Source: a virus (lineage: Duplodnaviria > Heunggongvirae > Uroviricota > Caudoviricetes). Taken from it: a DNA stretch of 40,581 nt. Shown here in pieces: positions 15,001 to 18,000 of this stretch. The DNA lies in the IMG/VR virus record IMGVR_UViG_2534682325_000021. The stretch is one strand, 5' to 3'. The position numbers were made by a program. How positions within the stretch are numbered: the first letter of the stretch is position 1; each line of letters opens with the position of its first letter.

Positions 15001-18000
15001 TATGAACAACTACGGTGACTTCTGCGCTAAACGGGGACGTTTATGCGCACATACAATCCAAACTCTCTTCTCCCTCCACAGATGCAGAAATACACCTGCG
15101 ATTTTTTGCATTCGGTGTTTTTGGCAGCCAAGAACAGGGAGTCTCTGTTTGTCTGGCGGCTAAAGGTGATATGGAAATCGTGATGTCTTAGCCTAAAGTA
15201 GTTGCAACAGTTGGAGCGATTATGGTGGTAGTAGTGATCATCGCGCCCCCCATATGCAAGGGTTGACGACATTATTTATCCGGCGCTATATTCTGTGCGT
15301 TGCCGCAAAATCGGCACACGGGATTGGCGTCCCGGACATCAAAACGACGCATAACCGCGTTCGCGGTTTTTTTATGCGCAGTGCACGTCTACACAAAAAT
15401 TATGGTGGGCTGTGTGAGGGCTTCTTCGGAAGCGCCGGATTTCGTTTTGACCGGTTACGCCAACCTTGCACAGTCCACCACCAGTCGATTGGCGTCGTCG
15501 GTGGTGATAGCTCAAATTCAAAACGAGATTATCGCTATGGTCACTCAGCTCGCATTCCGCGATGTAAAATTCACTCCTATAAATCACAACAACCAGATCT
15601 GGTTTACCAGCAAAGAATTGGCGGCAGCATTAAAATATGCCAGCACCAAAGCAGTAACCGACATCTACAACAAAAATATTGATGAGTTTACTGACGGAAT
15701 GTCTCAGGTCGTCGAATCAACGACCTCAGGAAATTATCGTAAGAAGACTCGCATTTTCTCCCTCCGTGGCGCCCATCTGATCGCCATGTTCGCCCGCACT
15801 CCTGTGGCCAAAGAATTCCGCCGCTGGGTGCTGGATATTCTTGATCGAGAAATTCAACAATCCCCAATCACAAAACAATTCACTGATAACGAACTTTGCA
15901 CACTTGCTTGGTTATGGCGGGCAAGTGACACAATGTTAACCGCTTGCCAAAACGTCACTCCGCTTCTTCAGGTAGCAGAACACCGCGAAGCCGGTCGCTT
16001 CACTTCAATCGAACAAGAATATCCCCGGATACTCAATAAGGCACAGGCAATCCTTGCCAGAGAAACGGCACATGTAAAATTCCGGCCGTGGCAGGATGAT
16101 AAGTGGAGTCGAGTATTGACGCATTTACGTTCTGAACGGCTGTAATAAAGTTGCGGGAGAGAAATGCCGCTAGTATTTTGTAATTAATTGAATGCTGACG
16201 GTTTAATGAGAAGTCAAGAACACTACTTGTACTATAATCGTTCGATGTTAGTGAGGGTTTGATGCAAAAAATGAAGTGATTGACCCTAAATTTGCGCGAT
16301 CAGCGACAGATTGTACACCGAGATCCTGTGGGCTGGAATTTGCAGAGAAATACCGAAAATGATATCCAATATTGTTTTCAGTTCCTACATCATACCTGAT
16401 AAGGGTATAATCATAAAAATTAGGATAATTCAAGTTATAATTGTATGAATAAAAACGACCTTGAAGCATTATCTGACACTAGGCTTAATGAGGCCAAATG
16501 CTTGCTTGATCATGGCTTTTTTCATGGTGCATATTATCTTTGTGGGTATGCAGTTGAATGTGCATTGAAGGCCTGTATTGCCAAGTCATTTTTACAACAT
16601 GAGTTTCCAAACAAAAAAGTCGTAAATGATTCATATACTCATGATTTGTCGCAACTTCTCAAAATTGCCAACTTACATCAAATTTTGATTGCTGACGCAA
16701 AAAATGATGTTTCGTTGGAGATTAACTGGTCGGTCGTTAAAGACTGGAGCGAGCAATTTAGATACGACAATAACATAAGTAAAGCTATGGCCGAACAATT
16801 GTTTGATGCTGTAGGTGACCAAAATTCTGGAGTTTTGAAATGGGTAAAAGCACACTGGTAATCGGCAGAGAGTTGACAAAAGATATGGAATTCTCAGGTC
16901 AATTTTTGTTAAAAAAACTCAAGTTACAGAATTTAACTATTGATGCTGCAATGTGGTTTTATTACCCAGATCTATCTTGGAGATATATTTTAGTTATCAG
17001 TGACTTCTCAGAACGTGGGCCGGCAGAAATATATAGAAAAATCAGTGAGATAAATAGAAATAGCATATCAAAAAAGTATAAGCCGATACCATTAGAAGCA
17101 ATTGAGGCTAAGGGGGATTCAGCTTTTGTTTATAAAATGTTAAAAGGATTTGCTAGAGTCAACGATGGTAAAGTTCGCGTTTCTAATTCTATGGTAAATG
17201 GTTTAGAAATCGTTGACTGTCTGATCTATGAGTTAAAATAAGAAATCTCTTACTGGGTATCATTATTGTTTAAATGACTTTTGATTTTCAATAATCAACT
17301 TGTCATAATTAAGTCACCGGAGTTTGAACTCCTCCGGTGACTTCTGCGCTAAACGGGGACGTTTATGCGCACATACAATCTAAACTATCTTCTCCCGTCA
17401 CAGATGCAGAAATGCACCTGCGATTTTCTTTATCCAGCGTTTGACCTCTGCGGAGGTGAAGCGTGAACCTCCCACAAGACGGCATCAAACTGCATCGCGG
17501 TAACTTCACCGCTATCGGTCAGCAGCTCCAGCCTTATTTGGAAGACGGCAAGTGCTTTCGCATGGTGCTTAAACCGTGGCGCGAGAGACGCAGTCTTTCC
17601 CAGAATGCACTTAGCCACATGTGGTACAGCGAAATCAGTGAATACCTTATCCGCAGGGGGAAATCGTTCGCTACCGCAGCATGGGTAAAAGATGCTCTCA
17701 AACACACATACCTCGGTTATGAAACCAAGGACCTGGTTGATGTCGTAACCGGCGAAATCACTACTATCCAGTCGTTACGCCATACCTCCGATCTTGATAC
17801 CGGAGAGATGTATGTCTTCCTGTGTAAGGTTGAAGCCTGGGCGATGAATATTGGCTGCCACCTGACTATTCCGCAGAGCTGCGAGTTCCAGCTGCTGCGC
17901 GACAAGCAGGAGGCGTAATGGCTACACCGCTTATTCGTGTCATGAACGGACACATCTACAGAGTACCAAATCGTCGTAAGCGTAAGCCTGAGCTAAAACC

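Follow-up and report, generated by a model that had tools for sequence, protein, structure and literature searches.

A translationally coupled HEPN gene pair in a lambdoid prophage of Escherichia coli O157:H7 as a candidate toxin-antitoxin or abortive-infection module

HEPN nucleases are recurrent effectors of toxin-antitoxin (TA), abortive-infection (Abi) and CRISPR systems, and their best-known partner in bacteria is the minimal nucleotidyltransferase (MNT) enzyme. Two small overlapping genes in the virus record IMGVR_UViG_2534682325_000021 (IMG/VR; 40,581 nucleotides, the whole of which is referred to below as the window) raise the question of what an HEPN protein does when the gene coupled to it does not resemble that of an MNT. 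The window shares 99.99% identity with a lambdoid prophage integrated beside mlrA (yehV) in Escherichia coli O157:H7. A sequence-only reading had proposed here two AT-rich open reading frames (ORFs) of 138 and 133 amino acids, overlapping by 22 nt with a GGAG ahead of the second, and had suggested that they form a TA or abortive-infection pair. The coordinates were exactly as claimed. Gene A (16445-16861, plus strand, ATG start, 138 aa; RefSeq WP_001038620, PHROG 5737) encodes the HEPN protein and gene B (16840-17241, plus strand, ATG start, 133 aa; RefSeq WP_000520500, PHROG 5760) its partner; the annotation pipeline PGAP names them 'HEPN domain-containing protein' and 'hypothetical protein', respectively. 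The AT-richness was also borne out, with a GC content of 33-37% over approximately 16200-17300 against about 50% in both flanks. As described below, that interpretation is partly supported: all of the structural claims hold, and the suggested TA or abortive-infection function is a well-founded candidate. Our analysis presents the 0.8-kb cassette as an HEPN-based TA/Abi candidate, with a partner family that would be new and an HEPN site that departs from the canonical one.

A conserved gene pair on mobile elements

A search of a word-indexed protein database returned 438 homologues of gene A and 489 of gene B. A profile of gene B, run against 1.84 billion cluster representatives, matched 3,220 clusters (50% identity) at E<=1e-3, 1,751 of them at E<=1e-10. 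Judging from these counts, both are genuine genes and not chance ORFs. When genomes were scanned with an alignment of the HEPN family, taking one genome per species, the HEPN gene was found to be encoded in at least 576 species genomes, belonging to the Acidobacteriota, Chloroflexota, Desulfobacterota, Bacteroidota, Planctomycetota, Verrucomicrobiota, Nitrospirota, Spirochaetota and Proteobacteria.

A homologue of gene B lay directly 3' of the HEPN gene and on the same strand in all 80 loci that were retrieved (contig ends truncate three of them, and one holds a short divergent variant), and the HEPN gene also came first in all enterobacterial, Acinetobacter and plasmid loci. The sequence-only reading had pointed out that this order is the reverse of that in canonical MNT-HEPN modules, and the reversal thus extends to 80/80 loci.

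The junction between the two genes is conserved as well. The element that would couple their translation (16829-16861, plus strand) consists of the GGAG at 16829-16832, 7 nt 5' of the gene B ATG, the ATG itself and a 22-nt dual-coding overlap (16840-16861) that extends to the gene A stop. The Shine-Dalgarno sequence GGAG (GGAGT) is made by the gene A codons of Gly129-Val130, and Gly129 is invariant; the gene B ATG at 16840 shares bases with the gene A Trp133 codon, and the Leu6-Val7 codons of gene B overlap Trp138 and the stop of gene A. Among 82 loci, 72 have an overlap of exactly 22 nt, and these come from many phyla; in 7 more the overlap is 7 nt.

Two further lines of evidence link the proteins themselves. 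Natural in-frame fusions of HEPN and partner exist: one is found in a Bryobacterales genome (L082, 5947-6777), and in the fusion P0351 (261 aa) the Pfam HEPN domain covers residues 7-111 and the partner profile residues 139-260. Taken as Rosetta-stone evidence, these fusions suggest that the HEPN protein and the partner act together. The pairwise-identity matrices of the two proteins were also correlated (r=0.75, Mantel p ~0.001), with the partner evolving faster (mean identity 32%, as against 49% for HEPN). The two genes are a conserved unit, obligately linked and ordered HEPN then partner.

Concerning distribution, the pair is present in 190 of 5,426 complete E. coli genomes, including strains of O157:H7, O26:H11 and others, always as a single chromosomal copy with at least 99% identity. 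The order of genes around it in the window is replication protein P, a VCH_CASS14-family gene on the minus strand, the isrK and C4 RNAs, a Bro-N/P22AR_C antirepressor, the pair, and then orf33-ybcN-ninE-DUF1364-rusA-ylcG-Q. This agrees with the placement given earlier, in the P-nin hotspot where lambda carries ren, next to an antirepressor. In another E. coli prophage a ren pseudogene, which lies just 5' of the pair, and an unrelated gene together take the place of the antirepressor, and the pair is still directly before orf33-ybcN, which indicates that it is a unit independent of the antirepressor. Comparison of neighbourhoods, one of the checks that had been suggested, showed that the cassette of Klebsiella and a 78%-diverged cassette of E. 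coli use this slot too, with replication genes on one side and NinB/NinG...Q on the other, in otherwise different lambdoid prophages. The Acinetobacter cassette closes a prophage and has umuDC, AbiH and an integrase as neighbours, and a 13.9-kb plasmid carries it between BrnTA modules. Cassettes of other phyla are found between housekeeping genes, in TA-rich islands with Fic, PIN and HicB, or at a prophage end. The distribution is thus patchy and mobile, with prophage, TA-island and plasmid contexts. We also noticed that a Cyclobacteriaceae contig (L031) carries a canonical MNT gene with GSx10DxD (5049-5441) about 550 nt 5' of the pair, so that a classical MNT-type module may adjoin the cassette there.

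The cassette seems to move together with a short leader. Homology of the diverged enterobacterial cassettes begins only 45-70 nt 5' of the gene A ATG; with the 78%-diverged E. coli cassette it begins at about 16376, which defines a leader at 16376-16444 (plus strand). A scan for sigma-70 consensus promoters called none directly 5' of the HEPN gene. The leader does contain a perfect -10 hexamer, TATAAT at 16406-16411, which is conserved in the diverged E. coli cassette and is a candidate for the cassette promoter; its -35 element is weak, and for this reason the scan passed over it. No known RNA antitoxin or other Rfam element was found inside the cassette.

The HEPN protein and its partner

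The sequence-only reading had seen a HEPN-like helical core in the first ORF, and the search with hidden Markov models supports this. Gene A matched the Pfam family HEPN (PF05168) over residues 12-118 with 27.8 bits (gathering cutoff 22) and an E value of 3e-6, and most of its homologues carry a precomputed match to the same family; NCBIfam gave no match with gene A, and PHROG 5737 is listed with function unknown. An AlphaFold2 model made from 53 relatives was all-helical and of high confidence (predicted local distance difference test score, pLDDT, 94; predicted template-modelling score 0.88). Its top Foldseek matches in the PDB were classical HEPN structures, 1wol, 1o3u, 1ufb, 2q00 and 2hsb, the proteins matched being ST0689, TM0613, TT1696, SSO P95883 and AF0298. 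The scores (probability 0.85-0.97, template-modelling score only about 0.5, E 0.3-0.8) are consistent with the assignment and not strong. Sequence searches of the PDB with profiles of the gene A and gene B families gave nothing meaningful. Judging from the domain match and the predicted fold, we regard gene A as a member of the HEPN superfamily.

Among 107 distinct relatives of gene A, residues R13, Y31, G34, Y35, E38, K42, P55, H66, W101, Y107 and G129 were invariant, and R106 was kept in 106. The invariant H66 belongs to the 'THDL' stretch that the sequence-only reading had singled out and lies upstream of R106. In a survey of the superfamily, HEPNs of the AF0298 and AbiV types were described as retaining the Arg of the Rx4-6H motif and losing its His, and it was proposed that a second conserved, N-terminal His could form an alternative active site (Anantharaman et al. 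2013, PMC3710099). Gene A shares this pattern of a kept Arg, a lost His and a second conserved His on the N-terminal side. Based on this match we propose as possible that its active site is formed by R106, the Arg of a degenerate Rx4-6H, together with the upstream H66. AbiV itself was rejected as a model for the pair, as it is controlled by an RNA antitoxin and not by a protein.

Two families catalogued by others come near to gene A. Table 1 of the same survey lists HEPN-T (Cpin_6617), a motif-less, mostly bacterial group that in Bacteroidetes and Nitrospirae is fused to a 'dyad of ferredoxin domains' (PMC3710099). HEPN-T may be the same family as gene A, the two being likened by description only, and would then have been catalogued in one table line of 2013; the 'dyad of ferredoxin domains' could describe the alpha+beta partner and the fusions. 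Among the defence candidates of PADLOC, the 138-position model PDC-M28A matched all 53 relatives of gene A weakly (29.7 bits for gene A, best E in the family 7.5e-12), and the weakness of these matches makes the gene A family look like a sister subfamily of PDC-M28A. No match to the component models of PDC-M28 was obtained with 58 relatives of the partner. PDC-M28 is itself only a candidate, with one component weakly like gene A and none like gene B; what led to the nomination of the PDC systems was their position inside BREX, DISARM or type I restriction-modification loci. A search of the accessible literature found no paper containing PDC-M28 or the RefSeq accessions or PHROG identifiers of the pair.

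Concerning gene B, no match was obtained in Pfam, NCBIfam or PADLOC, and PHROG 5760 is listed with function unknown. When 58 diverse relatives were compared with Pfam and PADLOC at E<=10, only scattered noise was returned, with no match to NTP_transf. The AlphaFold2 model of the protein describes a compact alpha+beta domain with pLDDT 90.5, composed of α1 (residues 14-29), β1 (34-41), a turn, β2 (47-53), α2 (56-74), β3 (88-91), α3 (96-101) and a β4-β5 hairpin (112-132). Residues G20, W39, D/E44, W47, G60, Y65, R113, D126 and Y130 are conserved. Acidic residues are conserved in just two columns, D/E44, in the β1-β2 turn, and D126.

We examined whether this domain could be an MNT. The claim that the second ORF lacks the MNT motif was upheld at the level of the family, as G[SG]x8-14DxD/E occurred in only 1 of 107 relatives, which is the level expected by chance. 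Foldseek found no significant match in the PDB for the gene B model, with MNT chains ranking 21st and 44th at E 0.2-0.4. An MNT profile was built from three MNT genes in the fetched loci and recovers MNTs of the PDB; in an hhalign comparison of the gene B profile with it, the probability was 0.2%. With GSx10DxD missing, an hhalign probability of 0.2% and no significant Foldseek match, we conclude that the gene B protein would not be a functional MNT. We see roughly even odds that gene B is a degenerate descendant of the MNT fold.

Candidate function and related systems

The reading that we favour, and to which we give about an even chance, is that the HEPN protein is an effector that targets RNA by means of R106 and H66, and that a non-enzymatic partner, co-translated with it in stoichiometric amounts, binds it and keeps it off, the two forming a TA or abortive-infection module. 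The pair would then be one mobile conflict cassette, in which the small HEPN protein is the toxin and cuts RNA through a non-canonical site. It would be made together with its obligate partner, which would neutralise it by direct binding, in the manner of RnlB on RnlA, rather than by the AMPylation that MntA performs. The nuclease would be set free when a phage infects or the partner is lost. As cargo of a lambdoid prophage, the cassette would most likely serve in abortive infection or defence against superinfection, and secondarily as an addiction module. The interpretation as a mobile conflict cassette is based on the HEPN membership, the obligate linkage, the conserved coupling, the fusions, the co-evolution and the patchy, mobile distribution. 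The architecture, with two small co-oriented and translationally coupled genes inherited as a unit, is that of a type II TA system of the RnlAB kind.

By supposed mechanism, RnlA-RnlB and LsoA-LsoB would be the closest known systems. Like the pair, they have the HEPN gene first, there a toxin gene, then a small protein without a DNA-binding domain, there the antitoxin, and a location on mobile elements of E. coli. RnlB binds the HEPN dimer of RnlA and blocks its active site (PMC8266594), and this blocking of the HEPN site by the antitoxin is the mechanism that we suppose for the pair. RnlA differs in having three domains and a canonical Rx4-6H, whereas gene A encodes a single 138-aa domain without that motif. 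Membership of the pair in these families by sequence was rejected, as neither protein gave a Pfam, NCBIfam or PADLOC match to them.

Several findings weigh against the reading of HEPN as toxin and partner as antitoxin. The canonical Rx4-6H is all but missing from the gene A family, with a His 4-6 residues past R106 in only 1 of 107 relatives. The partner is well folded in its model and lacks the DNA-binding domain that is usual in classical type II antitoxins. The isoelectric points (pI) of the E. coli proteins are 5.8 for HEPN and 9.3 for the partner, the reverse of the toxin/antitoxin pattern, although the family-wide medians fit that pattern and are opposite to the E. coli values. In an isolate genome of Catalinimonas alkaloidigena (L002, 4393-4857, compared with L003), a GAA-to-TAA change introduces a nonsense codon at approximately codon 19 of the partner, while the HEPN gene upstream is identical and intact. 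Conversely, two other loci (L032 and L042) have in-frame stops in the HEPN gene and intact partners. With two disrupted HEPN genes against one disrupted partner, there is no clear asymmetry of the sort that an indispensable antitoxin would leave. Finally, the cassette is rare in collections of phages, with 42 IMG/VR contigs, 1 isolated phage and 1 plasmid, most copies being chromosomal.

Some of these observations suit a two-component Abi system with the partner as sensor or activator instead of antitoxin. On recognising a phage product, the partner would turn on the HEPN protein, which would be inert alone, as is HepS. The nonsense-mutated partner of L002, tolerated beside an intact HEPN gene, would be expected under this alternative, and so would a stable, well-folded partner domain and the existence of fused forms. 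Sensors often evolve fast, and the partner does evolve faster than HEPN. Set against this are the toxin-first co-translation and the plasmid and TA-island contexts, which are more typical of TA pairs, and the lack of a recognisable ligand- or phage-protein-binding domain in the partner. Moreover, the lone L002 allele might reflect a fault in the assembly, or re-initiation might make up for the nonsense codon, since a 110-aa ORF is still called. We consider a sensor rather unlikely, though it is the foremost competitor of the favoured reading. HepS of Gifsy-1, a solo HEPN Abi anticodon nuclease that is inert alone and spares its own prophage, has no conserved neighbour and has a canonical R100-x4-H105 (Nature 2026, PMC13043305). 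By ecology it is the closest known system, as it is likewise an HEPN gene that the lambdoid prophage of an enteric pathogen carries as accessory cargo, with replication genes on one side and the antirepressor/nin region on the other. Compared by description, it is stand-alone and has the motif, in contrast to gene A with its obligate partner and no motif, and on these two grounds the pair was rejected as an instance of HepS.

The missing Rx4-6H motif can also be taken to mean that the pair forms an RNA- or nucleotide-binding complex, non-toxic and non-catalytic, whose function is regulatory, for example in phage development or stress physiology, with no conflict system involved. HEPN domains without the motif may bind without catalysing, MtlR being an example (PMC3710099), and the many chromosomal copies between housekeeping genes would fit such a role. 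On the other hand, motif-less HEPNs still came up as toxins in a genome-scale screen (PMC3710099). The invariant polar block R13, E38, K42, H66 and Y107, with R106 in 106/107, exceeds what a scaffold would need, and the sporadic spread on prophages, a plasmid and TA islands is that of mobile selfish or defence cargo. A purely regulatory complex is in our judgement unlikely.

The possibility of a cryptic type VII system was weighed in relation to HepT/MntA. The pair shares with that system a small classical-type HEPN adjoining a protein of about 100-130 aa, in widespread mobile two-gene cassettes, and MNTs are the best structural matches of the partner, though weak ones. A diverged nucleotidyltransferase partner could in principle modify the HEPN protein, for instance at Y107, through a reduced metal site of D/E44 and D126; these are the sole conserved acidic columns of the partner, an invariant Tyr does follow directly after R106, and the predicted order alpha-beta-turn-beta-alpha-beta in the partner may correspond to the topology of the nucleotidyltransferase core. 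However, GSx10DxD, which is essential for MntA (PMC7641770), is missing from all but 1 of the 107 relatives, no NTP_transf match was seen in the 58 members, neither hhalign nor Foldseek gave support, and the gene order is opposite, the MNT gene being upstream in MntA-HepT. Gene B also has no sequence or profile similarity to MNT, the HEPN protein lacks RX4HXY, and Y107 is invariant but stands in a motif context unlike that of the AMPylated Tyr of HepT. Identity with HepT/MntA was rejected on the lack of an MNT motif, the reversed order and the lack of RX4HXY, and a cryptic version of that chemistry strikes us as very improbable.

A reversal of roles, with the partner as toxin and HEPN as antitoxin or regulator, is the least credible alternative and highly improbable, since its supports, namely that the antitoxin gene usually comes first in type II operons, that the E. 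coli HEPN is acidic and its partner basic, and that two loci have a disrupted HEPN gene beside an intact partner, are met by the facts that a toxin without its antitoxin should not persist (so that the HEPN-disrupted loci also count against it), that the family-wide pI medians are opposite, that conservation is higher in HEPN, a member of a superfamily with known toxins, than in the partner, and that the partner has no recognisable catalytic motif.

Returning to the HEPN protein as an effector held in check by its partner, a more comprehensive version can be formulated, which we put forward only tentatively and as a minority prospect. Here the pair would be the founding member of an unnamed, multi-phylum family of HEPN conflict systems, with a split RNase site in which the Arg of the degenerate Rx4-6H works with a His on an upstream helix, checked by a catalytically dead MNT descendant (a pseudo-nucleotidyltransferase) that neutralises or senses by binding, without AMPylation; in the prophages of O157:H7 and other Shiga toxin-producing E. 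coli (STEC), its role would be defence by abortive infection, with an influence on the range of phages able to superinfect these hosts.

HEPN two-gene candidates are already numerous. What sets this one apart is an HEPN subfamily locked to a partner family that has no Pfam, NCBIfam or PADLOC entry in spite of some 3,200 clusters and a presence in at least 576 species genomes, and a gene overlap conserved from E. coli to Acidobacteriota. If the favoured reading is correct, the partner would be a new type of regulator for HEPN toxins, and the pair would bear on the 12-year-old proposal of an alternative His in motif-less HEPNs. It would also add a defence or addiction cargo gene to the STEC prophage hotspot, besides the SIR2 candidate in the rexAB slot described below, and would affect how susceptible O157:H7 is to phages and how stable its prophages are.

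Prophage setting and neighbouring genes

Upstream of the pair, the Hfq-binding RNA isrK (15301-15373, plus strand) and a C4 antisense RNA (15398-15485, plus strand), both recognised with Rfam, immediately precede the Bro-N/P22AR_C antirepressor gene (15537-16145, plus strand). The three resemble an antirepressor control unit like immI of P1 or isrK-anrP of Gifsy, and a promoter-like site lies ahead of them at 15263-15292. No terminator was predicted between the antirepressor and the HEPN gene (before 16445), so the transcript of this unit might read into the pair.

The antirepressor module and the HEPN pair lie between the two copies (14991-15105 and 17313-17427) of a direct repeat of about 115 bp with 89.6% identity. 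The counterpart of the second copy in phage 82 (X92588) is the stretch ahead of orf151 (ybcN) that holds a putative promoter, an inverted repeat and the beginning of orf33. The repeat has the appearance of a recombination junction where one accessory module was added to another. Seventy nucleotides past the gene B stop there is a perfect 12-bp inverted repeat with a 9-nt loop (17311-17343, plus strand), which opens the junction repeat before orf33/ybcN, matches the element upstream of orf33 in phage 82 and marks the right boundary of the cassette. The interval from P to the antirepressor module holds a further small accessory gene, AT-rich and encoding 115 aa (14437-14784, minus strand), which matches the Pfam family VCH_CASS14 of Vibrio integron cassette proteins with an E value of 5.7e-20.

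Further features of the window were recorded. The region 3' of the Q antiterminator gene contains three tRNA genes (19829-20077), followed by the small RNA STnc100 (20190-20382, plus strand) and AgvB (anti-GcvB; 20383-20444, minus strand). The next gene, of the DUF6645 family, begins at about 20592 and leaves no space for stx genes before it, and the yehV/mlrA prophage thus appears to be stx-less. A copy of the IS3-family element IS1203 within 1972-3283 interrupts a DUF4222 gene and contains an ALIL frameshift pseudoknot at 2830-2946. The second copy, which the reference strain ECP19-598 carries inside bet, is absent at 7252-8037 of the window, and bet is therefore intact here. Finally, a gene at 9209-10816 (minus strand) encodes a 535-aa SIR2_2-domain protein that matches the PADLOC single-gene defence candidate PDC-S25 from end to end (E 2e-235) and the ThsA SIR2 models weakly. 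The gene lies directly downstream of a cI-like XRE repressor gene (10923-11651, minus strand), in the slot occupied by rexAB in lambda, and is likely a second defence cargo gene of the same prophage.

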